A stretch of DNA of 11,390 bases, taken from IMG/VR virus record IMGVR_UViG_3300032167_000073; one strand, written 5' to 3'. The first letter of the stretch is position 1; each line of letters opens with the position of its first letter. A program made the translations under genes and the position numbers. The stretch is from a virus (lineage: Duplodnaviria; Heunggongvirae; Uroviricota; Caudoviricetes). The notes under the pieces were generated by a model that was given only the letters and a program-made list of their open reading frames with translations, did no database searches and had not been told where the DNA came from. This document shows positions 132 through 11,382 of this stretch, piece after piece.

Positions 132-195
132 AAAGAAAATGCAGAAAAACTATTGACGTGCGTTAATGCTGGAGCTATAATACAACCATAGTCAA
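132..195 (+). promoter_or_regulatory. Repeat-promoter copy 1
   Basis: TTGACG 153-158, 17-bp spacer containing CTGGAG, TATAAT 176-181, AACCATAGTCAA downstream, A-tracts upstream. Confidence 0.9.
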
Positions 196-234
196 CGACA
201 ACAAACGGTAAACGTCAAAACAGGAGGTATTCAA

Positions 235-417
235 ATGTTCGGCATTAACGCTTGTCTGGAGTCCATCGAATTCGACGTGAAGGTTCTTCATAAAGACCCG
301 CTGCATATGCTCGGCAAATATACGCTGCGTGCAAAGCAAGATCCTAGCTTTAATAAGACGATGATTGACGCGCTGATGATTTACATTGAGCGTAACGGCA
401 TCCGCTGGGATGACTGA
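235..417 (+). CDS. Hypothetical protein, 60 aa
   Basis: AGGAGG RBS at 222-227; only gene of module 1. Confidence 0.85.
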   Translation: MFGINACLESIEFDVKVLHKDPLHMLGKYTLRAKQDPSFNKTMIDALMIYIERNGIRWDD

Positions 418-429
418 AAAGCAAGCCGC

Positions 430-451
430 GCCGGGACGGTAAAATCCCGGC
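430..451 (+). other. GC-rich hairpin, possible terminator or 3' stabiliser
   Basis: GCCGGGA/TCCCGGC 7-bp stem, 8-nt loop; followed by A6 then T5 rather than an immediate U-tract. Confidence 0.45.
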
Positions 452-464
452 AAAAAACTTTTTC

Positions 465-528
465 AAAAATAAATCAGAAAAAGTATTGACAACGGCGTAA
501 GCTGGAGTTACAATCTAACCGTAGTCAA
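465..528 (+). promoter_or_regulatory. Repeat-promoter copy 2
   Basis: TTGACA 486-491, 17 bp, TACAAT 509-514, CTGGAG and AACCGTAGTCAA boxes. Confidence 0.9.
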
Positions 529-566
529 GAAACACCAACACTTAAAGCTTGAAGGGAGTAAAAACC

Positions 567-875
567 ATGACTGAACACATCATTACCGTTGGCCTCTTTG
601 ATAAGGATAGCAAGCGTCAGGAGATCGGCACGCTTGACGCATACAAGGTTATCACGAACATCTTTTGCGGCGCTGGCCTGTGCGCTACGATCCTTGAGGC
701 GCAGGGCGTTTACCGCCACGAAAACGGTGAAGTCGTGGTTGAACCGTCGCTGCGTGTTGAGTGCGCAGGCGCTACGCGCGAACAGATCAAGCCGATCATC
801 ATGCAGATTAAGACGGTTCTTAATCAGGAGTCCGTCATGTATAAGATGGTCGAATCCTCTATCGACTTCCTGTAA
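567..875 (+). CDS. Putative SAM lyase (SAMase)-like / DUF3574-like protein, 102 aa
   Basis: AAGGGAG RBS before ATG 567; motifs G47-x-Y49-R, E59-x-S-L-R-V and Q87-E-S-V resemble the GxY...ExT/S...Q[DE]xV pattern I recall for T3-type SAM lyases; no search run. Confidence 0.55.
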   Translation: MTEHIITVGLFDKDSKRQEIGTLDAYKVITNIFCGAGLCATILEAQGVYRHENGEVVVEPSLRVECAGATREQIKPIIMQIKTVLNQESVMYKMVESSIDFL

Positions 876-941
876 TGCAGATGACGCGCCGCCCATACCG
901 GGCGACGTGTAATGCAGCCGACGGCGGTTCAAAGCCCGCGA
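876..941 (+). ncRNA. Twister self-cleaving ribozyme, circularly permuted (P5-type order)
   Basis: P2 TGCA 876-879/913-916; GA 880-881; pseudoknot TGA 882-884/TCA 929-931; P1 885-894/900-909; U910-A911-A912 cleavage strand; pseudoknot GC 917-918/934-935; P4 GCGG 924-927/CCGC 936-939 closing a T-TCA-AA-GC loop. Confidence 0.85.
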
Positions 942-973
942 TCCTGCTAGATTAAGAAATGGGAGTGTATCAT

Positions 974-1432
974 ATGGCAAGCATTACTAGGGCGCAGCTT
1001 AACAAGTACAATGAAGCGTGCAAGAACGGCTTCATGTTCGATCTGCAGTATTTTCTGACGCATGGCGAAAAGCAGGTGATCCGCATCGTCAAGCAGGCAG
1101 ACGGTTCCCAGCTTCACGCGGTTATCTGGTTCATGCCTGAATACGAGCAGCGCAAAAATGCGTATGGTCAGACGTTTCAGGTGCCTACTGGCCGTCATCA
1201 GCCTGAAGTGCATATTTCCCGTTACGTCGAAAGCCGCATCAATAGCAATATGCTTGTGTCGCATGGCATGGGCAAGTCTATTGTGCTCAATGATCTTGAA
1301 TTGGGCAAGCCCTGCGCCCGTCGCACGTTCTCCACGCTGCAAAAGCTGACGGCGGCGATTAATGACGCATGGATTGAAACGCAGTGGGCAGAAGCGCCCG
1401 CGCGATCCTATGGCGGCGTGATTGTCGGTTGA
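974..1432 (+). CDS. Hypothetical protein, 152 aa
   Basis: GGGAG RBS 961-965 favours ATG 974. Confidence 0.85.
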   Translation: MASITRAQLNKYNEACKNGFMFDLQYFLTHGEKQVIRIVKQADGSQLHAVIWFMPEYEQRKNAYGQTFQVPTGRHQPEVHISRYVESRINSNMLVSHGMGKSIVLNDLELGKPCARRTFSTLQKLTAAINDAWIETQWAEAPARSYGGVIVG

Positions 1433-1446
1433 AGGGAGGGCGCAGC

Positions 1447-1617
1447 ATGAAGGGCAATTGCAAGCGGTACGTCGTCGAATTTGCAGGCGAATTCCTGAAG
1501 AATCCGGCGCTGTCAGATGGCTATAAGGTTGAGATCCGGCGCATTCTTGAGCACTGCAAGCGCGGGCGAATTTCATCCGTTGAAGCCGTCGAATGTATCT
1601 TGAAGCTTGTCAAGTAA
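1447..1617 (+). CDS. Hypothetical protein, 56 aa
   Basis: GGGAGG RBS before ATG 1447. Confidence 0.8.
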   Translation: MKGNCKRYVVEFAGEFLKNPALSDGYKVEIRRILEHCKRGRISSVEAVECILKLVK

Positions 1618-1633
1618 GAGGAGGTAACATATT

Positions 1634-1717
1634 ATGCCTGATATCCTTTGGTTGTTGGCGATCCCGGTTTCCTGCGTGGCGACTTTCAAGCTTCTTGCAT
1701 GGGAACAGACGTTTTAA
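1634..1717 (+). CDS. Small hydrophobic peptide, 27 aa (MPDILWLLAIPVSCVATFKLLAWEQTF)
   Basis: GGAGGT RBS at 1620-1625; fills the gap up to repeat copy 3; below the ORF-track cutoff. Confidence 0.65.
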   Translation: MPDILWLLAIPVSCVATFKLLAWEQTF

Positions 1718-1724
1718 AAATCTG

Positions 1725-1788
1725 AAAAATAATGCAGAAAAACTATTGACAAGGCGGCGGGCTGGAGTTATACTCTAACCATAGTCAA
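1725..1788 (+). promoter_or_regulatory. Repeat-promoter copy 3
   Basis: TTGACA 1746-1751, 17 bp, TATACT 1769-1774, CTGGAG and AACCATAGTCAA boxes. Confidence 0.9.
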
Positions 1789-1822
1789 GGACATCAAACA
1801 GTGAAGCAAGGGAGGCAATCAA

Positions 1823-1996
1823 ATGTATACGCTACACATTATCCCGGTTAGCACCAAAAACCCGCCGCTTTTCGTCAGGCACCATGAACCGACAATTGCC
1901 CATGCAGCAGCCGCCGATTATGCAAAGTTTAGCGACGTGCTGGCCGTAGAGGTTACAAACAACGTAACCGGGGAAATTGAAGCGATTTACGAATAA
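1823..1996 (+). CDS. Hypothetical protein, 57 aa (MYTLHIIP...TGEIEAIYE)
   Basis: GGGAGG RBS, ATG 1823, TAA 1994-1996; not in the ORF track. Confidence 0.8.
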   Translation: MYTLHIIPVSTKNPPLFVRHHEPTIAHAAAADYAKFSDVLAVEVTNNVTGEIEAIYE

Positions 1997-1997
1997 A

Positions 1998-2053
1998 TCC
2001 CGTCTGATGATGGCTGGATGGCCTCCAGCCGAAACGCTGCAAGCGTCACGGGA
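1998..2053 (+). ncRNA. Hammerhead ribozyme, type I
   Basis: Stem I TCCCGT 1998-2003/ACGGGA 2048-2053; CTGATGA 2004-2010; extra T 2011; stem II GGCTGGA 2012-2018/TCCAGCC 2024-2030; GAAA 2031-2034; stem III ACGC 2034-2037/GCGT 2043-2046; GTC cleavage triplet 2045-2047. Confidence 0.9.
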
Positions 2054-2226
2054 AGCCGCCGACGGCACGTAACCGTCGTTAAACCGGGCAGGCAGGCCGA
2101 ACGGCCTGAAGATGAAAGTCGGGCAACCGGGCGGAAAAGAGACAGGTTGAAGCGGGCAAGGAAGCTGCACCCCATGTGATCCGCTGCACGGGCGCGGCAA
2201 ATTCAAAGAAAAGGGGATAACGGGAA

Positions 2227-2538
2227 ATGACTAGAGGGTATCAGGAACGCCGCTATAACATGCAGGCGCGTGAATTTGAGAAGGTTGCCGACTGGACGTT
2301 TACCGTGTATCCCGGCGATAACGAACACTTAACCGTCAGCCGGAACGGAGTCGTGAAAACCGTTCGCGTGGAGGATTGCAGCGAATTCGTTTTCAGTTTG
2401 AAGCGCACAAAAGTGCTTGCGCGTGGCGGCGCGTCCGGCCTCTTTGAATTCATCGACAAAGAGCTGTTCGGGGATGAATTCGCGTGCTTTGCGTGGAAAG
2501 TCCTGCGCCATTGCTTCTTTGATTGCAAGGCGGCTTGA
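2227..2538 (+). CDS. Hypothetical protein, up to 103 aa
   Basis: Co-oriented ORF; start is 2227 or 2260. Confidence 0.7.
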   Translation: MTRGYQERRYNMQAREFEKVADWTFTVYPGDNEHLTVSRNGVVKTVRVEDCSEFVFSLKRTKVLARGGASGLFEFIDKELFGDEFACFAWKVLRHCFFDCKAA

Positions 2539-2587
2539 CGCAGGCGGAACGATGGCCGGAACGATTAACAGAACGGAGGGCGGAACC

Positions 2588-2827
2588 ATGAAGAAGCGGA
2601 AAAGCTATGTTGGTATGAACTTTAAAAAGTGGTGCCAACTTGATCCCGACGATGAACGGAAAATCAATTACACCCTGACAGGCTATTGGGCGTGGGTGTA
2701 CCATGAGGAACATTTTACAAGCGATGACTATTGCGATCCGATGACGATGTTTCGTGTTCAGAATTCGACGATAATGGAAATCAGGCTGGAAAACGACGAA
2801 TGGTTTGTAACCCTGCGTTATAATTAA
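2588..2827 (+). CDS. Hypothetical protein, 79 aa
   Basis: GGAGGG RBS before ATG 2588; ends just before repeat copy 4. Confidence 0.8.
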   Translation: MKKRKSYVGMNFKKWCQLDPDDERKINYTLTGYWAWVYHEEHFTSDDYCDPMTMFRVQNSTIMEIRLENDEWFVTLRYN

Positions 2828-2830
2828 TTT

Positions 2831-2892
2831 AAAAATAAAGCGGAAAAAGTATTGACAAATACAACCGCTGGAGTTATAATAACCTTAGTCAA
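2831..2892 (+). promoter_or_regulatory. Repeat-promoter copy 4
   Basis: TTGACA 2852-2857, 17 bp, TATAAT 2875-2880, CTGGAG, AACCTTAGTCAA (2 bp closer to the -10). Confidence 0.9.
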
Positions 2893-2921
2893 GGAGATAC
2901 AACACTAGGAGGCGGAAAATC

Positions 2922-3182
2922 ATGATCATTGCATCGGAAGTTATGCCGGGGATCGTCTGGAACGTCAATCGCGTATACGACGGAAACGCGCCGGAAGCAA
3001 TCGAGATGGAAACGGAAAACGAATTCATCCGCAGATTTAACCCCGTGGTGCTTTCTAACGGCCTGACCGGAAAAAGCTTCTGCATGGATACATGGATGCC
3101 TACAGGCCGACTGCTGGAAAATATCGTGCCGACGTGGGGCGCGGATGGAACGGGCGTTTATCATGCGCTGATCGTGTACTGA
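2922..3182 (+). CDS. Hypothetical protein, 86 aa
   Basis: AGGAGG RBS; first gene of module 4. Confidence 0.85.
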   Translation: MIIASEVMPGIVWNVNRVYDGNAPEAIEMETENEFIRRFNPVVLSNGLTGKSFCMDTWMPTGRLLENIVPTWGADGTGVYHALIVY

Positions 3183-3203
3183 TGGCGGAACGGAGGAATG
3201 GAA

Positions 3204-3344
3204 GTGGAAAAGCTTTATAAGGGCGTGAAGTACGATCTGAAGCCGGAAGGATATTTCACGATCCGCCTGCCGGATGGCGGATGGACAAAGTTCTTTGGAA
3301 CGGAAACGGATTGCAAGACGTTTATCCGGTTCATGATCAAGTGA
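3204..3344 (+). CDS. Hypothetical protein, ~46 aa (start-EKLYKGVKY...FMIK)
   Basis: GGAGG 3192-3196 suits GTG 3204; ATG 3198 is in frame but too close to the RBS; TGA 3342-3344. Confidence 0.7.
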   Translation: MEKLYKGVKYDLKPEGYFTIRLPDGGWTKFFGTETDCKTFIRFMIK

Positions 3345-3376
3345 TAGACCGTTAGACGGAAGAGGAGGAACAACAC

Positions 3377-3739
3377 ATGAAAATCAAGCTGGATGAGCGT
3401 GTCATTACGCTGGCGGAAGTGCAGCAGGCAAATGAGCTTGCGGCGGAAAGCGATTGGATCGACGTGGATACCATTGAAGGAGTTGTGCGCGGAAACCTTG
3501 GCGGTCATATCATGTTTGATGAGCTGATCGGAACGCCGGAACTGACGGTTACAAAGAACGATTTCCGTCTGACGGTTTGGGTGGAATGTTGGGCGCGGTT
3601 CTTCCGGGATGGAAAGAGCCGGATTGCAAAGGTCAGCGCGGATGTGCTCAAGTGGACGCAGGGCATGGAAAAAGCGGCGTTTATCGTGGAGTATGAGGAG
3701 ACGCGCGACTATATCACAAGCGGAAAGCCGGAGGCTTAA
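3377..3739 (+). CDS. Hypothetical protein, 120 aa
   Basis: GAGGAGG RBS; co-oriented ORF. Confidence 0.85.
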   Translation: MKIKLDERVITLAEVQQANELAAESDWIDVDTIEGVVRGNLGGHIMFDELIGTPELTVTKNDFRLTVWVECWARFFRDGKSRIAKVSADVLKWTQGMEKAAFIVEYEETRDYITSGKPEA

Positions 3740-3741
3740 AG

Positions 3742-3921
3742 ATGGAATTTCTCATTGAGGTTTGCGAGTCCGTGCGCAAGATCGTGCGCGTTGAGGCGGA
3801 GGATGAGCAGGCCGCTTGCGCCAAAGCTGAAGTGATGTATGATAACGGAAAGATCGACATGGAAAAAGATGTGGTCGTGGAAACTGAATTCACATGCAGG
3901 AAGCGCGGAACGGAACTGTAA
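3742..3921 (+). CDS. DpnD/PcfM-like small protein, 59 aa
   Basis: GGAGG RBS 3730-3734; IEVCESVRKIVRVEAEDEQAA...MYDNGKI...EF resembles my recollection of the DpnD/PcfM pattern; not in the ORF track. Confidence 0.6.
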   Translation: MEFLIEVCESVRKIVRVEAEDEQAACAKAEVMYDNGKIDMEKDVVVETEFTCRKRGTEL

Positions 3922-3929
3922 AACTCTTT

Positions 3930-3993
3930 AAAAATAATACAGAATAAGTATTGACAAATGGGATGTCTGGAGTTATAATCTAACCATAGTCAG
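3930..3993 (+). promoter_or_regulatory. Repeat-promoter copy 5
   Basis: TTGACA 3951-3956, 17 bp, TATAAT 3974-3979, CTGGAG, AACCATAGTCAG. Confidence 0.9.
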
Positions 3994-4023
3994 AGACATA
4001 CAATAGTAACGGAGGGCGATCCA

Positions 4024-4263
4024 ATGGAAAAGAAGATGACATATGCTGAATTCATGGAATCGGAAGAATACCGGGGCGCAGGCATCATTGGGCTGTACGA
4101 TTCGGATGGAACGGAAATAGACTGTGATGTGCCGGATGAGGATCTTGCGGAATCGGAAGTTCTGGAAGTGGAAGCGCACGCAGGATATGTAAGCGTCGTC
4201 ATCGACTTTGATGTATCCAAATGTCCGAAAAATAAAGCGGCGTTTGCGGCAGCACGAAAATAA
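4024..4263 (+). CDS. Acidic hypothetical protein, 79 aa
   Basis: GGAGGG RBS; 19 D/E versus 8 K/R. Confidence 0.85.
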   Translation: MEKKMTYAEFMESEEYRGAGIIGLYDSDGTEIDCDVPDEDLAESEVLEVEAHAGYVSVVIDFDVSKCPKNKAAFAAARK

Positions 4264-4279
4264 CAGGGAGGATGATCCA

Positions 4280-4810
4280 ATGGAAAAGCGGATGACGCTG
4301 GCGCAGCTCAAGCGGGATGCAAATTCCGGCTGCTTGGTTCTTGAAATCATGGAACGCTTTGGCGACACGGGCGAGCAGATCCCGGAACGTCTGCGTGGAA
4401 AGCGCCCGGTCACGCGAAGCAATTCTGTCGGCATCTTCCTGCGCAACATGTCCGGCGAGGAAAGCGAGCTGCGATTGGATAACGCGAAGCTGACCGAGTA
4501 CACCGGAGACGAGCTTGTCATTTACAGCGCCGGATACCGTGACGTAACGCCGCAGGAGCAGGCTGTGCTGGATGGTATCAAACGGATCTTAGCAGAGCGT
4601 GCGGATGAGTATAACGGCGGATTCTGGCAAGCTAAACAGTTTGCTATGGAAAGTGATTGCCCGTGGATGTGGGTGTATGGAACCGGGGCGATTAATGGTA
4701 AAAGATACGATCTGTGTAGCGGAAGAGTGCTTGATCATGCCGTGCGCGGAGACGTAGAAATCCGCTATAAGGTGTACAGAAAGGAGCCGCAGAATGGAAA
4801 AGCTGTATAA
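4280..4810 (+). CDS. Hypothetical protein, 176 aa
   Basis: GGGAGG RBS favours ATG 4280. Confidence 0.85.
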   Translation: MEKRMTLAQLKRDANSGCLVLEIMERFGDTGEQIPERLRGKRPVTRSNSVGIFLRNMSGEESELRLDNAKLTEYTGDELVIYSAGYRDVTPQEQAVLDGIKRILAERADEYNGGFWQAKQFAMESDCPWMWVYGTGAINGKRYDLCSGRVLDHAVRGDVEIRYKVYRKEPQNGKAV

Positions 4811-4949
4811 CGTCTATTTCACGGATGCACCGGACGATCCCGTCAAGGTGCGCTGCGCCAATAAGACGCAGGCGCGGGCGGAAGGTCGCCTGTATATCAA
4901 ACAGTGGAACCTGAAAGCAAAGATTGACCGGATTGAGGAGGCCGCTTGA
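4794..4949 (+). CDS. Hypothetical protein, 51 aa (MEKLYNVYF...IEEAA)
   Basis: AAGGAG RBS 4781-4786; overlaps the upstream gene end; not in the ORF track. Confidence 0.75.
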   Translation: MEKLYNVYFTDAPDDPVKVRCANKTQARAEGRLYIKQWNLKAKIDRIEEAA

Positions 4950-4950
4950 T

Positions 4951-5190
4951 ATGGAAAACAAAAAGGAGTTTTACATTGATACGCCCATCGGAAAGCTGCA
5001 TGTGTATGAAAAAGCCGATCCTGACTATCCCGGCATCTTTGTGGATTTGATCAATCCGCAGTTACGCAATGATGATAATATGATCTGCTGCGTGGAATAC
5101 GAACAGCTTATGCAGCGGATTCAGACTGTCACATATAGGCCGGGAGAGGATGAACCCACCGACATCATCATCAATTATGAGGAGGGGTGA
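4951..5190 (+). CDS. Hypothetical protein, 79 aa
   Basis: GAGGAGG RBS before ATG 4951. Confidence 0.85.
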   Translation: MENKKEFYIDTPIGKLHVYEKADPDYPGIFVDLINPQLRNDDNMICCVEYEQLMQRIQTVTYRPGEDEPTDIIINYEEG

Positions 5191-5193
5191 CGG

Positions 5194-5394
5194 ATGGAAA
5201 GAAAGAAAATCAGGCAGCTCATCTGCAGCGCCGGAACCCGTGAAGCGCTGGAAACGATGATCAATGAGTTTTACTATTCGGATTCATACCGGATTCGGGA
5301 TGATGGAACCGTATTCAACGCGAAGAAAAACGCCGTGCTGGATAGCACGATGGTCGAGCAGCGCCGTGGCCGCTGGCGCTTTGGTCTGATTTGA
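5194..5394 (+). CDS. Hypothetical protein, 66 aa
   Basis: GGAGGGG RBS; tight packing with neighbours. Confidence 0.8.
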   Translation: MERKKIRQLICSAGTREALETMINEFYYSDSYRIRDDGTVFNAKKNAVLDSTMVEQRRGRWRFGLI

Positions 5395-5407
5395 CGGAGG
5401 GATGACG

Positions 5408-5611
5408 ATGAAATACTTCTATACGCATGATAGCGAGCTGCGCAAGCACAACGGCCTGAAGGTGGAAATTCTCAGGAAGTTGACTGCAAGCGAGTGTGAC
5501 GAGGAGGAAGTCGGCAGCATGTACGAAGTCCGCATGCCGGACGGCAAAGAGATTCATGCTTTTGATGATGAATTGTTTGACGAGCAGCAGGAGGGTTTTC
5601 CGTGCGCATGA
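5408..5611 (+). CDS. Hypothetical protein, 67 aa
   Basis: GGAGGG 5396-5401 favours ATG 5408. Confidence 0.85.
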   Translation: MKYFYTHDSELRKHNGLKVEILRKLTASECDEEEVGSMYEVRMPDGKEIHAFDDELFDEQQEGFPCA

Positions 5612-5829
5612 TCAAAGTGGATGGCAGGCCGACGCGCCTGCGCCGTTTCCGGGTGCGCCTGCTGGTCTTGTCGGAGGTTCCCGCACAGTATGCAAGCGTC
5701 ACCGTCGAGCTGCTGGCCGCGAATTATTTGGATGCTCAGGAGCGTGTGGCAGCGCTTTTCAAAAGCGAGCTGGTGGATGAGGATCGCGGCCTTGAAGTGA
5801 CCGAAGTCGAGCGCACGAAGTACGCATAA
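5602..5829 (+). CDS. Hypothetical protein, 75 aa
   Basis: GGAGG RBS with GTG start overlapping the upstream gene end. Confidence 0.7.
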   Translation: MRMIKVDGRPTRLRRFRVRLLVLSEVPAQYASVTVELLAANYLDAQERVAALFKSELVDEDRGLEVTEVERTKYA

Positions 5830-5845
5830 GCGGGAGGATGAGCAA

Positions 5846-6133
5846 ATGGAAATCACAAAGATGCTGACGATCTCCAATGGACACGTGTCCGATGAAACGT
5901 GGCAGAAGCTTGCAAGGGAGGCAAGCGCGGAGTTTGGCGTTGTCCTGCCCATGGCCGTCTACGCAAAGGGCGAGTATGGTTTTCTCATCTCCTGCGCGTG
6001 CATGTATAATGAGGAAAACGAGGGTATCCCCGACGATCTGCTTATGTGCATGAAGCTGGCGCATGAGTGCGGCTGTATGTGGCTTTGTCTGGACGATGAC
6101 GGCGAGCTGCTTTCCTGCCTGCCGCGATATTGA
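5846..6133 (+). CDS. Hypothetical protein, 95 aa, possibly DUF5983-like
   Basis: GGGAGG RBS; IS-x-x-H, GEYGFLI and WLCLDDDG...LP segments resemble a mobile-element family from memory; family call tentative. Confidence 0.75.
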   Translation: MEITKMLTISNGHVSDETWQKLAREASAEFGVVLPMAVYAKGEYGFLISCACMYNEENEGIPDDLLMCMKLAHECGCMWLCLDDDGELLSCLPRY

Positions 6134-6157
6134 CAAACGCTCAAAACCCGCTATAAT
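6130..6157 (+). promoter_or_regulatory. Stand-alone sigma70/sigmaA-type promoter, not a copy of the repeat
   Basis: TTGACA 6130-6135, 16 bp, TATAAT 6152-6157; no CTGGAG or TAGTCA box; overlaps the upstream stop codon. Confidence 0.7.
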
Positions 6158-6217
6158 GGGCTTGTAGAGGCCGGAAAACGACGATAAAACGCACATTTTA
6201 ACCATGGAGGGATGATC

Positions 6218-6442
6218 ATGGGAGACCTTGTAACTATGGCGGTTCTGTCCGCGCTTTGTGTTGTGCTGTATAAGTTCGGCAATTGGTGCGGCGCAAAGGT
6301 TCCTGTCAATGATACCTATGACTTCCGGGGCTATCGCAAAAAGCCGTTTACAAGGGAAGATTTGGACGAGCTGCACCGCCGCTGTATCGGAAAGCCACAG
6401 AAGGAACAGCAGTGGATCATCCGCAATTACAGAGGAAAGTGA
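6218..6442 (+). CDS. Putative membrane-anchored protein, 74 aa
   Basis: GGAGGG 6206-6211 favours ATG 6218; N-terminal hydrophobic stretch LVTMAVLSALCVVLY. Confidence 0.75.
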   Translation: MGDLVTMAVLSALCVVLYKFGNWCGAKVPVNDTYDFRGYRKKPFTREDLDELHRRCIGKPQKEQQWIIRNYRGK

Positions 6443-6452
6443 GCGCCCTATC

Positions 6453-6623
6453 ATGACACCAAAGGAATTCTATGAGCAGATGCAGCAGATTCGTGCAGAC
6501 GAGGATCTTTCAAATGACGATAAGCATGAGCGCATGGACGCGCTGATGTGCAAGTTGCTGGCCGAAATGGGATATACAGACGGCATTGAAGTTTTTAGAA
6601 GTACAGAAAAATGGTATTGGTGA
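6453..6623 (+). CDS. Hypothetical protein, 56 aa
   Basis: ATG 6453 in the long open frame; RBS weak; ends at the terminator. Confidence 0.75.
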   Translation: MTPKEFYEQMQQIRADEDLSNDDKHERMDALMCKLLAEMGYTDGIEVFRSTEKWYW

Positions 6624-6653
6624 TCCGGCCTGAAATGGTCGGATTTTTTCTTT
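6623..6653 (+). terminator. Intrinsic terminator
   Basis: ATCCGGCC/GGTCGGAT 8-bp stem (one G-U), 6-nt loop, then TTTTTCTTT. Confidence 0.8.
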
Positions 6654-6664
6654 GAAAATTTCTT

Positions 6665-6728
6665 AAAAATAATACCGAAAAAGTATTGACGCAAGATTGA
6701 ACTGGAGTTATAATCTAACCGTAGTCAA
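6665..6728 (+). promoter_or_regulatory. Repeat-promoter copy 6
   Basis: TTGACG 6686-6691, 17 bp, TATAAT 6709-6714, CTGGAG, AACCGTAGTCAA. Confidence 0.9.
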
Positions 6729-6766
6729 GGAACAGCAACGGTAAAACGAAACAGGAGGACGGAACG

Positions 6767-6940
6767 ATGAAGTGGAAAGTCGTGGTTGATATCTCCCCTA
6801 GAATGATCGAAGGAACCAACGGTTGTCATAAGTATGTGCATAGCTGGCACGACACGAAGAAGGAAGCGGACAACATCGCAGCGCAGATTAACGAAAACGG
6901 CAAGCTTGGCAAGGCGACGGTCGAAAGAGTAAAGCGATAA
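6767..6940 (+). CDS. Hypothetical protein, 57 aa (MKWKVVVD...ERVKR)
   Basis: AGGAGG RBS; first gene of module 6; not in the ORF track. Confidence 0.8.
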   Translation: MKWKVVVDISPRMIEGTNGCHKYVHSWHDTKKEADNIAAQINENGKLGKATVERVKR

Positions 6941-6954
6941 GGGAGGAAAACACG

Positions 6955-7266
6955 ATGAGACTTCATTATTACAGATTCCCGGAGAATACGCCGGAAGAAA
7001 CCAAATTGGCCGAGGGCTGCGCGGTGATCCTGAAGACTGGTAGAGAGATTTGCGTTGACCATATCCCGGATGACCGTAGGCCGCTGGTTGATCGTGTGGA
7101 TGATACGCTTGGCGGGCTGTCTATCACGCACGTCAAGAACCTGATCAAGACCTACGGCGGCACCGGATGGACGGAGCACTGCGAGCGAGACGGCAGCGTG
7201 TTTGAAGTCACCGAGATCAAGCTGGCCGGAAACAATAGCCGATTCAAATACAACCATCACCTGTAA
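6955..7266 (+). CDS. Hypothetical protein, 103 aa
   Basis: GGGAGG RBS; co-oriented ORF. Confidence 0.85.
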   Translation: MRLHYYRFPENTPEETKLAEGCAVILKTGREICVDHIPDDRRPLVDRVDDTLGGLSITHVKNLIKTYGGTGWTEHCERDGSVFEVTEIKLAGNNSRFKYNHHL

Positions 7267-7279
7267 GGAGGCGACGATC

Positions 7280-7498
7280 ATGGAAACCATCAAGGAAAAG
7301 ACCTTGACCTTTATGGATGTGGACGCTTGGAGCCGTCCGCTTTACAAGGATGAAAACGGCAGAATATGGGCAGATATATCGCCGATGAGCGGGTGGAAGC
7401 CGGAATTGTACACCGTCACAGACGAGGGCGAGCCGGATATGCCGATGAAGTCTGGCATCAAAGTCACGTTTGTACCGCATCGAATCGTGTGGAGATGA
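7280..7498 (+). CDS. Hypothetical protein, 72 aa
   Basis: AAGGAGG RBS favours ATG 7280. Confidence 0.85.
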   Translation: METIKEKTLTFMDVDAWSRPLYKDENGRIWADISPMSGWKPELYTVTDEGEPDMPMKSGIKVTFVPHRIVWR

Positions 7499-7511
7499 GG
7501 AGGAAGAAACC

Positions 7512-7739
7512 ATGATCAAGGCAGAGGGAAACAGGATGATCGAAGTGAGCAGAAAAGATTTGAAGCTCTACACGTTCGGCGCTAACCTCAATCCGATTTA
7601 TAACATCAAAGAGCCGGAACTGACCGAAATCAAGATCCCGGCCACGGATTACCAGCACGCACTTGACCGCCTTGAGGCGCTGGTTGGCCGCAGCAGAGTG
7701 TCTGAATTCTTCTGGCAGGATGAAGAAAAGTATGAATAA
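7512..7739 (+). CDS. Hypothetical protein, 75 aa
   Basis: GAGGAGG RBS favours ATG 7512. Confidence 0.8.
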   Translation: MIKAEGNRMIEVSRKDLKLYTFGANLNPIYNIKEPELTEIKIPATDYQHALDRLEALVGRSRVSEFFWQDEEKYE

Positions 7740-7752
7740 GGAGGGCGACAAA

Positions 7753-7959
7753 ATGAGTAGTAACGAACGAAACGAGCTTGTGCATGCACTGTCCGCAGCA
7801 TCCAATGCTTTTCATAGAGTTCTGAAAGAACATGGCTATGAAGTGAGCTATGGTCTGGATAATACAAACACCGGGATCATCATGAAATCTGATGTTCCTG
7901 TGTATGAAAACAATGATCTTGGAAAACTGACAATCCTTTGGAATCTGAAAAAGGAGTGA
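7753..7959 (+). CDS. Hypothetical protein, 68 aa
   Basis: AAGGAGG RBS favours ATG 7753. Confidence 0.8.
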   Translation: MSSNERNELVHALSAASNAFHRVLKEHGYEVSYGLDNTNTGIIMKSDVPVYENNDLGKLTILWNLKKE

Positions 7960-7964
7960 AGAAG

Positions 7965-8120
7965 ATGAAGCCTTGTGCAGAACTGGCGATAGAAAGAGCA
8001 AAGCGGGAAAAGCTTGAGCTTGCAAAGAAGTACGACGTGTCGCCGTCAGCGATTGTATGGCTGGGCGATAGCCGCTATATCGTCGTCAAAGGCGGTCAGG
8101 AAATCAAGGTGTGGAGGTAA
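7965..8120 (+). CDS. Hypothetical protein, 51 aa
   Basis: AAGGAG RBS before ATG 7965. Confidence 0.75.
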   Translation: MKPCAELAIERAKREKLELAKKYDVSPSAIVWLGDSRYIVVKGGQEIKVWR

Positions 8121-8124
8121 AACC

Positions 8125-8352
8125 ATGTGGATTGGCTTTGATACAAATAAGCATCATGGTATCGTTGAAGTGGGTACGGGACGGGTTATCGCGTATGAAA
8201 ATTCCCCGGCGATATCAAGACGAAAGTTTGAAACACATGTGAAAACGTCTGTGAATACCTTTCCGTATACGGATGAGGATTTGATTATCATCGGAGCGAG
8301 AAAAGCTCTGTTTGGATGTTCGCACGTGCTCAATGAGGTTGCGGGAGGTTAA
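8125..8352 (+). CDS. Hypothetical protein, 75 aa
   Basis: GGAGGT RBS before ATG 8125. Confidence 0.8.
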   Translation: MWIGFDTNKHHGIVEVGTGRVIAYENSPAISRRKFETHVKTSVNTFPYTDEDLIIIGARKALFGCSHVLNEVAGG

Positions 8353-8357
8353 AGAGA

Positions 8358-8525
8358 ATGTTTGTTGAAGATCATCGTCGATATTTCATCATGCAGCAGT
8401 ATTGGGATCTGTGGGGCATCGTCGAGGAAGAGGATGCGTATATCTGTCATGATGCGCTGGAGGAGTATGCGCAGGAATGGCATACGACGGTTGAAGAGCT
8501 TTTAAAACAGATGATCGAAGTGTAA
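8358..8525 (+). CDS. Acidic hypothetical protein, 55 aa (MFVEDHRRYF...QMIEV)
   Basis: GGGAGGT RBS; 14 D/E versus 3 K/R; not in the ORF track. Confidence 0.8.
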   Translation: MFVEDHRRYFIMQQYWDLWGIVEEEDAYICHDALEEYAQEWHTTVEELLKQMIEV

Positions 8526-8537
8526 CGGAGGAATAAC

Positions 8538-8729
8538 ATGGTCAGACACATGCCCGCGCCGAGGCTCAAGAACTATGTTTACCGCTATAAGACGGATAAA
8601 GCCCTGCTGGAAAAGCACCCGGAGCAGCGCGAGCTGCTGGAAAAGAGGATCGCGCGGCACGAAAAGGATATTGTCGCCTACGTGACGAGCGAGCATTTTG
8701 AAAATGCACTGAATAATCTTCATCTTTGA
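8538..8729 (+). CDS. Hypothetical protein, 63 aa
   Basis: GGAGG RBS; stop codon abuts repeat copy 7. Confidence 0.8.
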   Translation: MVRHMPAPRLKNYVYRYKTDKALLEKHPEQRELLEKRIARHEKDIVAYVTSEHFENALNNLHL

Positions 8730-8792
8730 AAAATAATACAGAAAAACTATTGACATATGCATACGCTGGAGTTATAATACAACCATAGTCAA
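8729..8792 (+). promoter_or_regulatory. Repeat-promoter copy 7
   Basis: TTGACA 8750-8755, 17 bp, TATAAT 8773-8778, CTGGAG, AACCATAGTCAA. Confidence 0.9.
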
Positions 8793-8823
8793 TGACATGC
8801 AATGGTAGATGGAGGGATACAGA

Positions 8824-9201
8824 ATGAAGAACGATCTGATGTTTGGTTGCCTTGGCAACGGAATCACGGTATGGGATAGAAGCCGGAATGAGGGTGGCAA
8901 CTATAAGACCGTCGCGCATATCAGCGAGTTCGGCGGCGTGCGTCTCTTTAAGAATCACGGTCTTTCCGATGAAAGTATTGCCCGGATTCACCAGCATGCG
9001 AGGCATCAGGCCGAGGCATTCCACGTTCATTTCCTGAATCTGCCGTATAGCAGGCAGCTTGAATACTATTACAACGTCATGACGCATGCGCAGTTCCTTG
9101 AGCGAGGGAAAAGCGGCGATAAGACGGCGCAGCAGCTCTATGAAGCGTATGTCAGTTGTGCATGCGCCAATCATGGTTACGAGATGAGGGAATCGCAATG
9201 A
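8824..9201 (+). CDS. Hypothetical protein, 125 aa
   Basis: GGAGGG 8811-8816 favours ATG 8824; GNGITVWDR...YKTVAHIS segment resembles a motif I associate with mobile elements. Confidence 0.85.
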   Translation: MKNDLMFGCLGNGITVWDRSRNEGGNYKTVAHISEFGGVRLFKNHGLSDESIARIHQHARHQAEAFHVHFLNLPYSRQLEYYYNVMTHAQFLERGKSGDKTAQQLYEAYVSCACANHGYEMRESQ

Positions 9202-9689
9202 ATGATGTAATGAGAATTGATTTTATATCCGGCATGTGTAATTCCGATGGCGAACTTGTAAAAGGAACGGAAAAAGAAGTTTGCATACTCTTTAATCAAA
9301 CGGTCATTTCCAAGGAAGAAGTGCATGAGCTGATAAAAGCGGGGATGTATGAATACGATAAACGTATTATCGTCACAACGCCCGTTCAGGCGGATAATCT
9401 GAAAGGTTGTAAAAAGGGGGGGGCTGAAATCATGGTGAAGCATGGCCTGTTTGATACAAACGATCTGCTTCTGAGCAAGGGGCAGAAGGATGTCAAGGAT
9501 TTTCTGATCTTTGAATCCGAAACGTCCGCTGTTTATCCTTTTGCCGTTGCGCCGGAGGATGTGACGTTTGCGCATGTTGCGCAGATCATCGACACGGCAA
9601 GCGCAGGTTCTTGGCATGCCGGGTTCAATGTCACGACGGATGATCTGTATGCAGCTTGTGAAAAGGTGCTTGGCATCAATCCAGCTTAA
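9198..9689 (+). CDS. Hypothetical protein, 163 aa; possibly two genes joined across a G8 tract
   Basis: ATGA overlap with the upstream stop; internal A5G8 at 9411-9423 sits 8 nt before in-frame ATG 9432. Confidence 0.75.
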   Translation: MNDVMRIDFISGMCNSDGELVKGTEKEVCILFNQTVISKEEVHELIKAGMYEYDKRIIVTTPVQADNLKGCKKGGAEIMVKHGLFDTNDLLLSKGQKDVKDFLIFESETSAVYPFAVAPEDVTFAHVAQIIDTASAGSWHAGFNVTTDDLYAACEKVLGINPA

Positions 9690-9706
9690 TAATACGGAGG
9701 TTGTTT

Positions 9707-9904
9707 ATGTTTGTGAGACAGCTTGTCAGAATGGCACATAATGATGAATATATCAGCGTTGAGGATGAAAGCTTTAATGTATTTGCAGAAGGAGAAGCAA
9801 GAAACGTGATGTCAAATCGCGTCATTCTTGGCCTGAAGGTAGATCATTTTTATACAGGGAACCGGAATAACCGCGAATGCACTGTGGTTGTTGCAAGTAA
9901 ATAA
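9707..9904 (+). CDS. Hypothetical protein, 65 aa
   Basis: GGAGGT RBS before ATG 9707. Confidence 0.8.
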   Translation: MFVRQLVRMAHNDEYISVEDESFNVFAEGEARNVMSNRVILGLKVDHFYTGNRNNRECTVVVASK

Positions 9905-9928
9905 GGATTGCAGACAGGAGGAAACACC

Positions 9929-10618
9929 ATGGAAGATCGTTGCAGGGATGTGCTTGGCGAGCGCGAGGATCACCCGTCGTATGCGATGATGAGTGTCAGT
10001 AAGATGTCGTCAAACGTCGGCATGCCGCTGTTTGGTTCGTCCATCAAGCACCGCGATACCATCAAGCTCACCATTAAGCGCGGACATGTGCGCCGCAGGC
10101 TCAATCAGGACTGGTATTATGGTAATGAGCGTTTGATCGAAGTGGAGATGTCGTATTCGCAGTTCGCCGAGATCATGACCTCTATGAACGTCGGAGACGG
10201 TATCCCGGTCACGCTCACCTATTTCAAGGGTGAAGGACGCATCCCGGAATGCCCGTTCGTAGATAAGGCGAGCGTGCATCTTGACGAGTTCCGCGAGAGC
10301 CTGAAGAAGACCTACGCCAATACGCAGGCGCTTATTGGGCGCGTGCGGGAGCTTTTCGCGGGTAAAAAGTCCTTTAATAAGGCAGAGCAGCATGAGATCC
10401 TGTGTGCGCTTAATTCCATCAGTGCCGATATCGGCACCAATCAGGATTTTCAGGTGTCGCAGTTTCATGAGCAGATGGAAAAGACTGTCCGCGAGGGTAA
10501 GGGCGAGATTGAGAGCTTCTTCCAGAGCAGGGCGAGCCATTATGCGGCGCATAAGCTTGTCGAGGCGGGCGAAGAGGCTATGCCGGAGCTTCCGCCCGTG
10601 GAAATTGATATGAAATAA
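9929..10618 (+). CDS. Hypothetical protein, 229 aa, longest in the window
   Basis: AGGAGG RBS before ATG 9929; HPSY...LFGS...IEVEMSYSQFAE pattern looks like a phage/plasmid family of unknown function (from memory). Confidence 0.9.
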   Translation: MEDRCRDVLGEREDHPSYAMMSVSKMSSNVGMPLFGSSIKHRDTIKLTIKRGHVRRRLNQDWYYGNERLIEVEMSYSQFAEIMTSMNVGDGIPVTLTYFKGEGRIPECPFVDKASVHLDEFRESLKKTYANTQALIGRVRELFAGKKSFNKAEQHEILCALNSISADIGTNQDFQVSQFHEQMEKTVREGKGEIESFFQSRASHYAAHKLVEAGEEAMPELPPVEIDMK

Positions 10619-10641
10619 TAACAATAAAGCGAGGATAAATC

Positions 10642-10791
10642 ATGATCATCACCATCAGGGACGGCCTTGGTTATGTCAGTCTGGAAATCGAAAACGACAT
10701 CACCTTCACGGATGGCTATGCCTTTTTCACTGCTGATAACAAAGAGTATAAGGTGCATGCGGAGCATGTCGTTGAGATCACCGGGAAATAA
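10642..10791 (+). CDS. Hypothetical protein, 49 aa (MIITIRDG...EITGK)
   Basis: GAGG RBS; ends just before repeat copy 8; not in the ORF track. Confidence 0.75.
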   Translation: MIITIRDGLGYVSLEIENDITFTDGYAFFTADNKEYKVHAEHVVEITGK

Positions 10792-10805
10792 GTTCAAAGA
10801 AATTT

Positions 10806-10867
10806 AAAAATAATGCAGAAAAGGTATTGACAAATGTGCCGTCTGGAGTTATACTAACCTTAGTCAG
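10806..10867 (+). promoter_or_regulatory. Repeat-promoter copy 8
   Basis: TTGACA 10827-10832, 17 bp, TATACT 10850-10855, CTGGAG, AACCTTAGTCAG. Confidence 0.9.
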
Positions 10868-10935
10868 AGAGATACTAAAGTTGATCTTTGAACTAGACGC
10901 CAATTCTCAAGTATGGTAAGATGGAGGGAGCCGAC

Positions 10936-11142
10936 ATGAATTCTACGCTATATAGCAAGGCTATCCGAACGCCGATCATCGGCGATTATCTGGAAAGCGC
11001 CTGCATTCCGAGGGACGATCAAAGCGTGCTGGCCGCAGCAAGGTATCTCAATGATACGAGGTACGACAGCGGACGCTTTGAATTCGCTTCCGCTTCCGAG
11101 CGTGGGGCGTTTACCCGGTTCTTTAATCGTTACTGTAAGTAA
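10936..11142 (+). CDS. Hypothetical protein, 68 aa
   Basis: GGAGGGAG RBS favours ATG 10936. Confidence 0.8.
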   Translation: MNSTLYSKAIRTPIIGDYLESACIPRDDQSVLAAARYLNDTRYDSGRFEFASASERGAFTRFFNRYCK

Positions 11143-11166
11143 ATAGAAATCATGGAGGAAATGAAA

Positions 11167-11382
11167 ATGGCAAAGCAGAAGAAGCAGGAACCCATGATCA
11201 CCTATACCGAAATCCTTTCCCGCGCGATCCGTCAGATGGAGGCGGAGCTTGAAAGCTGGGAAACGCGCATGGCCGGAAAGCCCGGTATGGAGGAGTATAT
11301 CGAGGCCAAGCGTGATGAGCTTTGCCCCAAGATCGAGGCCACGAAGACGCTGTACAAGATCGAAACCGGAACCGACTATTGA
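11167..11382 (+). CDS. Hypothetical helical protein, 71 aa
   Basis: GGAGG 11154-11158 favours ATG 11167. Confidence 0.8.
   Translation: MAKQKKQEPMITYTEILSRAIRQMEAELESWETRMAGKPGMEEYIEAKRDELCPKIEATKTLYKIETGTDY

Follow-up and report, generated by a model that had tools for sequence, protein, structure and literature searches.

A repeated promoter with two conserved boxes, a candidate immediate-early class in a large SPbeta-like phage of gut Clostridia

Why should a short stretch of viral DNA carry the same promoter-containing repeat eight times, each time ahead of a small gene? The question is raised by an 11,390-nucleotide stretch of a tailed-phage record (IMG/VR IMGVR_UViG_3300032167_000073), referred to here in its whole length as the window. 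An initial annotation, made from the letters alone, proposed that the repeats organise the window as a regulon of small anti-host or anti-defence genes expressed on entry. We followed the repeat through the window, through longer contigs of the same phage and through its relatives. Together the comparisons suggest that the repeat probably represents a class of immediate-early promoters in a large SPbeta-like gut phage, with two boxes, CTGGAGT and AACCNTAGTCA, that would serve as its shared control sites. That these boxes are read by a trans-acting protein is a more tentative proposal, which we place slightly below an even call.

Anatomy, extent and conservation of the repeat

All eight copies are present where the initial annotation had placed them, as established by alignment, by repeat families and by a profile scan, and all lie on the + strand of the window (Table 1). 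With a profile built from the eight copies, the per-copy E values ranged from 1e-17 to 2e-21. A 25-base exact pattern, TATTGAC-N11-CTGGAG-N-TA-NNN-T-N1-3-ACC-N-TAGTCA, gave eight matches in the window versus none in 200 dinucleotide shuffles. The word TAGTCA occurs eight times in the window, in the repeats only, where 0.7 occurrences would be expected. The initial annotation had matched the sequence of the repeat to no known repeat, and we concur.

Each copy opens with an A-rich, UP-element-like block, AAAAATAATGCAGAAAAAGTA, that abuts the -35 hexamer TTGAC(A/G). Ten unconserved bases follow, then CTGGAG(T/C) and the -10 hexamer TA(T/C)A(A/C)T, and the 3' end consists of a linker of 2 or 0 nt and the sequence AACC(A/G/T)TAGTCA. 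The 17-bp distance between -35 and -10 recorded earlier is found in all eight copies, which agree with TTGACA/TATAAT at 11-12 of 12 positions in a promoter scan; every copy is thus a sigma-70/sigma-A promoter by its hexamers (TTGACA plus TATAAT, 16-18 bp apart). A linker of 2 nt between the -10 and AACC had been described for the whole family; it is seen in six copies, and the copies at 2831 and 10806 have none. The gene reported behind each copy is also there, preceded by a GGAGG-type ribosome site and starting with ATG on the + strand, 42-81 nt downstream. Measured from the predicted transcription start, CTGGAGT occupies about -19 to -13 and the start-site box AACCNTAGTCA falls across the start itself. 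The Firmicute -16 TRTG motif and the extended -10 TG motif are both missing from these promoters, since CTGGAGT has A at -15. Outside the promoters, CTGGAG occurs twice on the + strand and once on the - strand of the window, with about three expected per strand, and is therefore not avoided.

The initial annotation confined the family to positions 132-10867, and in this respect it fell short. Scanning with the eight-copy profile identified four further full copies downstream, as well as one variant upstream on the other strand, in which CTGGAGT and AGTCAGAGG are kept and the -10 is weaker. The full copies thus number 12, all on the + strand across about 24 kb. This count is a minimum, as the genome of this phage was seen in part, and a regulator gene may lie in the remainder. 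The late-side DNA of contig L008 (10 kb) holds no copy of the family.

Promoters do not end with the family. Beyond about +25 kb on the scale of the window, further promoters keep the upstream half of the repeat nearly letter for letter (TTTAAAAATAAAGCAGAAAAAGTATTGACA). Those at 6039, 11501, 13849 and 19585 of contig L027 have a TG-type extended -10 and neither the CTGGAGT nor the AACC box. Near the divergence point of the early arm, the promoter at L003 8368 combines a TAGTCA box with a TG-type -10. These promoters appear to be built from two modules: a shared recruitment module, formed by the A-rich block and the -35, and a class-specific module around the -10. Because downstream promoters with the same upstream half lack the boxes, the boxes would mark an immediate-early subclass, referred to here as class I, and we refer to those downstream promoters as class II.

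The upstream block was also found by itself, with no -35, at six places (L027 7141, 7567, 13935 and 19917; L002 10893; L003 8734). These solo copies share the prefix AAACCAA (AAACCAAWGCAGAAAAAGTA); one lies 12 nt before a tRNA-Leu/Ser/Met array and another inside the LPD29 gene. They may constitute a binding site in their own right. In IMG/VR the solo motif gave three matches, by chance, within unrelated coding DNA.

Table 1. Class I promoter copies and associated features (window coordinates; offsets of downstream copies are on the window scale)
Feature	Position	Strand	Description
Small-gene array	235..11382	+	about 38 genes of 27-229 aa; 8 promoters give units of 1 to about 10 genes
Class I copy 1	132..194	+	TTGACG, 10-nt spacer, CTGGAGC, TATAAT, AC, AACCATAGTCA; drives gene 235-417
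Class I copy 2	465..527	+	-10 TACAAT; drives SAM-lyase-like gene 567-875; terminator hairpin 430-451 upstream
Class I copy 3	1725..1787	+	-10 TATACT; drives gene 1823-1996 (other gene there in strain L003)
Class I copy 4	2831..2891	+	short form, no linker, AACCTTAGTCA; drives gene 2922-3182
Class I copy 5	3930..3992	+	drives gene 4024-4263
Class I copy 6	6665..6727	+	drives gene 6767-6940 (swapped in L003); terminator 6622-6645 upstream
Class I copy 7	8729..8791	+	drives gene 8824-9201
Class I copy 8	10806..10866	+	short form; drives gene 10936-11142 via longer, 81-nt leader
Consensus promoter outside family	6130..6157	+	TTGACA-16-TATAAT, no family boxes; ahead of gene 6218-6442; segment replaced in L003
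Downstream full copy	about +12.6 kb	+	ahead of 379-aa gene and DUF4942 adenine methylase
Downstream full copy	about +16.2 kb	+	ahead of DarA_C protein
Downstream full copy	about +20.0 kb	+	ahead of LPD29 protein
Downstream full copy	about +23.9 kb	+	ahead of 319-aa tyrosine recombinase
Family variant	upstream of window	-	directly heads YonO operon

Two strains, L003 and L004, whose flanking DNA is 93-98% identical, provided 10 comparisons between orthologous copies. Changes were counted at 3 of 526 positions of the conserved blocks, compared with 24 of 100 in the 10-nt spacer (Fisher p about 1e-17). Paralogous copies show the same pattern, with an identity of 0.85-0.96 in the blocks and 0.30 in the spacer. 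Since duplication or conversion would have carried the spacer along, the likeness of the copies appears to be kept base by base by selection.

Around the repeats, the differences between the window and L003/L004 are whole-gene replacements, one deletion and two insertions, and their borders are gene borders. The differing segments correspond to window positions 235-417, 1823-1996, 2588-2827, 4024-4263, 6106-6182, 6767-6940 and 7745-7753. Three of these about seven differences (235-417, 1823-1996 and 6767-6940) hit the first gene behind a copy, and one left breakpoint lies within 10 nt of the end of a repeat; most right breakpoints are at gene ends, not at repeats. The lost segment 4024-4263 is flanked by two copies of a ribosome-site/start repeat (4004-4047 and 4260-4303).

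Gene replacement of this kind is what would be seen if the repeats were mobile promoter cassettes of the PeSL type (promoter plus terminator stem-loop), alike through recombination or gene conversion and acting mainly to shuffle genes between phages rather than to regulate them in common. The exact gene borders, the three replaced first genes and the breakpoint beside a repeat fit such cassettes, and, as in the hyperplastic regions of T4 (PMC2839356), many genes here lack known relatives. However, conversion should have evened out the spacer as well, and the spacer is where the copies diverge most. Moreover, right-hand breakpoints are mostly not at a repeat, and the terminator stem-loop that defines a PeSL stands ahead of only two of the eight copies. 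We consider this explanation improbable, and shuffling and common regulation are in any case compatible with each other.

A large SPbeta-like phage and its early arm

Whether the DNA was phage or an integrative and conjugative element (ICE) or plasmid had been left for checking. Through exact protein identity, the same gene array was located on metagenome contigs of up to 137 kb. Upstream of the window and on the opposite strand, these encode an operon with a 927-aa YonO-type RNA polymerase, a metallophosphoesterase, an HU-like protein, a YonG-like protein, a terminase and a portal. Over 513 residues the 927-aa protein, which has a Pfam RdRP match, shares 26% identity with SPbeta YonO (E 1e-28), and the two align at the DxDGD motif. 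Between the terminase and SPbeta YonF the identity is 35% (E 1e-107), the portal matches SPbeta YonE (E 3e-17), and the gene order YonG-YonF-YonE is that of SPbeta. Because its flanks carry a YonO-type polymerase and a YonF/YonE-like terminase and portal in SPbeta order, the contig belongs to a phage rather than to an ICE or plasmid. A megablast search of the window against plasmid and phage records gave no match.

Relatives whose YonO is 43-81% identical were found among IMG/VR contigs of 103-167 kb and among contigs of metagenome-assembled genomes binned to Clostridia, Lachnospiraceae, Roseburia, Hungatella and others. From these comparisons we place the window where the early arm begins in a large SPbeta-like phage of gut Clostridia. 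The exact pattern of the full repeat was absent from GTDB genomes, IMG/VR and a metagenome collection, which do not include the contigs of this phage, and a pattern scan of IMG/VR with the class I boxes alone gave no match.

Between the divergent promoters of the YonO operon and the early arm lies a gene-free zone of ~1 kb, with AT-rich TATATACGTA-type repeats and several CAAAGTTTGAG-like repeats (L003 7330-7440 and 7680-7930). Relatives carry iteron-like arrays at the corresponding place (L014 9041-9345 and L017 4600-6400), and this zone may be an origin or packaging region. The phage also has at least 12 tRNA genes in three clusters (L027 14488-15608 and 19945-20377; L008 6587-6753), and two of these (Asn and Tyr) lie between the YonO operon and the late genes.

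In SPbeta, YonO is the single-chain RNA polymerase that transcribes the late genes, and the promoter it uses is undefined (PMC5467207). It could be argued that the repeat, or its upstream block GCAGAAAAAGTA, is the promoter for the YonO-type polymerase of the present phage; the upstream block is conserved beyond mere A-richness, and it stands without a -35 at the six places listed above, one of them next to a tRNA array. Against this, all copies are near-perfect sigma-A promoters of fixed 17-bp spacing, and the polymerase gene itself lies behind a copy. Furthermore, the late region, which is YonO-transcribed in SPbeta, contains neither element as far as it was covered here, and the module is absent from the whole late block of a complete relative. 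We regard this as the weakest of the rival explanations and as very improbable.

The two boxes, their history and their possible reader

Our preferred reading is that the host polymerase with its main sigma factor would fire all class I promoters together after DNA entry. The result would be a burst of small early proteins, some of them probably anti-restriction, together with the YonO-type polymerase, which would later transcribe the structural genes as in SPbeta. CTGGAGT and the start-site box would act as shared control sites, most likely for a phage-encoded DNA-binding factor. Such a factor might shut off or repress the whole set together, or keep the class off in a lysogen, in parallel to the repressor MrpR on its repeated element SPBRE in SPbeta. 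We take the boxes as control sites of the class because purifying selection on them is strong, because other promoters that share the upstream half lack them, and because a consensus promoter can do without them.

The history of the boxes could be traced in a graded series of relatives collected with the gene of a tyrosine recombinase, always behind a class promoter, as anchor. Where the recombinase is 86% identical in protein sequence, its promoter has both CTGGAGT and TAGTCAA. In L040 (72%), CTGGAGT is present in three of four TAGTCAA-box promoters and a TG-type -10 in the fourth. In L041 and L038 (70-71%), AACCNTAGTCAA directly follows the -10 in all four to five promoters each, and TGTGC, TGTAG or ATGC stands in place of CTGGAGT. 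Overall, the promoters of relatives and the class II promoters of this phage have TGTG, TATG or TGn at the CTGGAGT position.

The complete relative G001 (160.7 kb, YonO 69% identical) has about 25 + strand promoters that share the upstream module, none of them in the late block. A homologous leader box, TAGTAAATGAGTTACT, is found on nine of its promoters, the recombinase promoter among them, and all nine lie in the 25 kb that follow the divergence point. There the box forms an inverted repeat and could fold into a 5' hairpin; in the lineage of the window the dyad has been lost, with the left half invariant. Thus the start-site box appears to have long marked, in this phage group, the part of the early arm that is expressed first, and CTGGAGT appears to be a recent replacement of the Firmicute TRTG motif in class I only. 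With one box old and the other a recent replacement, the locus would offer a good case for a phage rewiring a whole promoter class.

Could the boxes simply be intrinsic promoter elements read by the host polymerase? CTGGAGT would then represent a variant -16/extended -10 element, AACC with TAGTCA would supply a discriminator and initial transcribed sequence for very fast escape, and the "regulon" would amount to a set of equally strong promoters with no phage regulator. CTGGAGT does occupy the TRTG position of the promoters of relatives, with G at -14 and -16 in common, and it is found together with weak -10 hexamers, TAAAAT and TAAACT among them. That neither scans of the early products nor complete relatives yielded a regulator is also in keeping with intrinsic elements. 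However, the TG-type -10 is kept in the other promoters of the phage, and a change in the taste of the polymerase does not explain a change in one class. Eleven invariant bases across the start go far beyond known discriminator or start-site preferences, and this phage and the complete relative alike carry the start-site box only within the early arm's first ~25 kb, which points to a temporal class. We therefore hold this explanation to be unlikely. A class-specific trans-acting reader would be more economical, because a changed preference of the host polymerase would alter class II too.

A further explanation places the function of the start-site box in RNA. Class I messengers would begin (AU)AGUCAA, a tag for an RNA-binding protein, nuclease or stabiliser of phage or host. 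The box lies at and after the predicted +1 and is hence transcribed, the homologous leader of G001 is a potential 5' hairpin, and candidates for self-cleaving RNA in operons 2 and 3 suggest RNA processing in this region. Yet the leaders of class I messages have no conserved fold (11 sequences, 0 predicted pairs), AACC is situated upstream of the start, and the left half of the box stayed invariant after the dyad of the relatives was lost. An RNA tag is accordingly a doubtful explanation, about as improbable to us as mobile cassettes.

In this lineage about 13 promoters, all of a single class, exchanged TRTG for CTGGAGT in concert. Known type IIS/IIG enzymes that methylate adenine (BpmI/GsuI) recognise the word CTGGAG. 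Both lineages with CTGGAGT, this phage and L040, encode an orphan adenine methylase (DUF4942) that closely follows a class I promoter, and the relatives with TRTG have no such methylase; this co-occurrence is probably a single evolutionary event. CTGGAGT might then do more than a passive operator and act at the extended -10 as a switch of a new kind, in which the difference between methylated incoming and unmethylated replicated DNA times the immediate-early class, or in which a phage factor replaces the sigma contact at -16. We mention this switch as a long shot. Homologues of the methylase in IMG/VR and GTDB were considered as a clue to its target and set aside, as they belong to unrelated high-GC elements in which CTGGAG is a Leu-Glu codon pair, and PDB and NCBIfam gave no clue to its specificity.

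Several observations speak against a DNA-binding factor that reads both boxes. A recognisable DNA-binding protein was not found among about 50 early products scanned, nor was a homologue of MrpR (YopR) found in four complete relatives, one of which was also searched locally with tblastn, positive controls included. Dyad symmetry is lacking in the boxes, and the 0- versus 2-nt linker shifts the distance between them, which is awkward for one rigid dimer. CTGGAGT sits exactly at the extended -10 read by RNA polymerase and could be a polymerase contact instead of an operator. Finally, the two boxes evolved separately and so may serve two functions.

The 319-aa tyrosine recombinase that served as anchor (L025 11469-12428, about 24 kb downstream of the window start) consists of a catalytic domain and a conserved 70-aa tail only. 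It is a core gene of the phage group, with more than 500 homologues, is 55-86% identical in relatives, and always stands directly behind a promoter of the TAGTCAA/TAGTAAA class. We considered it as an MrpR-like repressor and rejected it: BLAST showed no sequence likeness to YopR or YopP, and there was no PDB sequence match. Across 25 homologues, the catalytic residues R, K, H, R, H and Y do not vary. A structural model (predicted local distance difference test score, pLDDT, 73) gave weak matches to generic Xer, Cre and lambda integrases, and MrpR was not in the top 50. We found no evidence supporting the recombinase as a regulator of class I.

The small-gene array and comparison with known systems

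The initial annotation coupled co-regulation to anti-host or anti-defence gene content. The first part is well founded, as the promoter family splits a one-directional array of about 38 small genes into units that would be co-regulated; the second finds hints in a few products only. The gene calls were made independently on the identical contig L001, and a GGAGG-type ribosome site precedes almost all genes of the array. The product of 567-875 has a sub-threshold match to S-adenosylmethionine (SAM) lyases, and other hints of anti-defence function come from DpnD/PcfM and DUF5983 in the window and from DarA_C and the orphan DUF4942 methylase downstream. About 30 products of the array had no match in Pfam, PHROGs or further look-ups, and atlas look-ups assigned no function to two larger early proteins. 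An anti-defence content of the early genes is thus only hinted at.

Additional features were observed within the array. A Twister-P5 ribozyme match (Rfam; full model, 41.5 bits versus a gathering score of 37.6, E 5e-6) at window 876-939 on the + strand begins directly after the stop of the SAM-lyase-like gene, and gene 974-1432 follows it. In promoter unit 3, the first gene is followed by a gene-free, GC-rich stretch of 230 nt (1997-2226), in which Rfam found no match at E values up to 5. A gene for a 27-aa hydrophobic peptide (1634-1717), below the 40-aa limit of the list of open reading frames (ORFs), has a strong ribosome site and ends at the A-tract of copy 3. In the ORF 9198-9689, a run of eight G (9416-9423) is a possible slippage site that would split the 163-aa product. 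At the contig edge, a 42-nt GC-rich direct repeat is present in two copies (1-42 and 68-109), where related contigs end or vary; the repeat tract 1-109 probably breaks assemblies.

In the gut, large SPbeta-like phages are common, and hardly any of their early genes have been characterised. The promoter class would amount to a list of the genes that such a phage needs first, including candidate anti-defence and host-takeover proteins. Class I promoters might also serve as strong portable promoters for Clostridia, and the class I boxes provide a concrete cis-element with which to fish for the regulator.

Four established systems had been offered as analogues of the repeat. The comparison with conjugative plasmids and ICEs (repeats of the CUP and pLS20 type) does not hold, given that the element is not on a plasmid or ICE: there is no plasmid match and the flanks are phage genes. 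PeSLs, which join a promoter to a terminator stem-loop in RB49-type T4-like phages (PMC2839356, PMC4122927), share with the present family repeated strong sigma-70-like early promoters, small strain-variable genes and gene replacement adjoining the cassettes. They differ in host group and in sequence, and the analogy fails at their defining feature: a stable hairpin with a T run precedes only the copies at 465 and 6665, and upstream of the other six the DNA folds no better than shuffles.

The likeness to the host-takeover module of Bacillus phage SPO1 extends to layout and not beyond. That module, about 12 kb long, holds some two dozen small early genes in several operons, whose products act on the host and are mostly of unknown function (Stewart 1998; PMC6873191). 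Dense small early genes, several strong sigma-A promoters and strong ribosome sites are found in both. In contrast, SPO1 is an unrelated lytic phage whose switching relies on sigma factors of its own, extra boxes around the -10 are not reported as a common feature of its early promoters, and neither Pfam nor PHROGs revealed homology between the genes.

By analogy, the closest known system is the SPBRE/MrpR regulon, which the initial annotation did not list. SPBRE, the SPbeta repeated element (Lazarevic 1999), is found in ten SPbeta promoter regions, one of them that of yonP (upstream of yonO), and the master repressor MrpR/YopR binds to it (PMC10516654). In the SPbeta sequence, we found it within or beside the sigma-A -35 and -10 hexamers. 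The two phages are of related type, both having a YonO polymerase, the order YonG-YonF-YonE and an HU-like gene. Both repeat a short element in the early arm's promoter regions, with one copy heading the operon of the phage polymerase (yonP-yonO in SPbeta). However, the sequences are unrelated (the SPBRE core is CAAATACAAAWAATATGTATA), and two separate boxes flank the -10 here, where SPbeta has one 15-bp motif. Because the sequence differs and no MrpR homologue was found in four complete relatives, we consider the class I repeat an analogue of SPBRE and not a member of its family. The principle of repeated early promoters with a shared control site is already known from SPbeta; what is new here are the boxes themselves, an architecture of two modules, the exchange of TRTG for CTGGAGT in concert and the solo copies of the upstream block.

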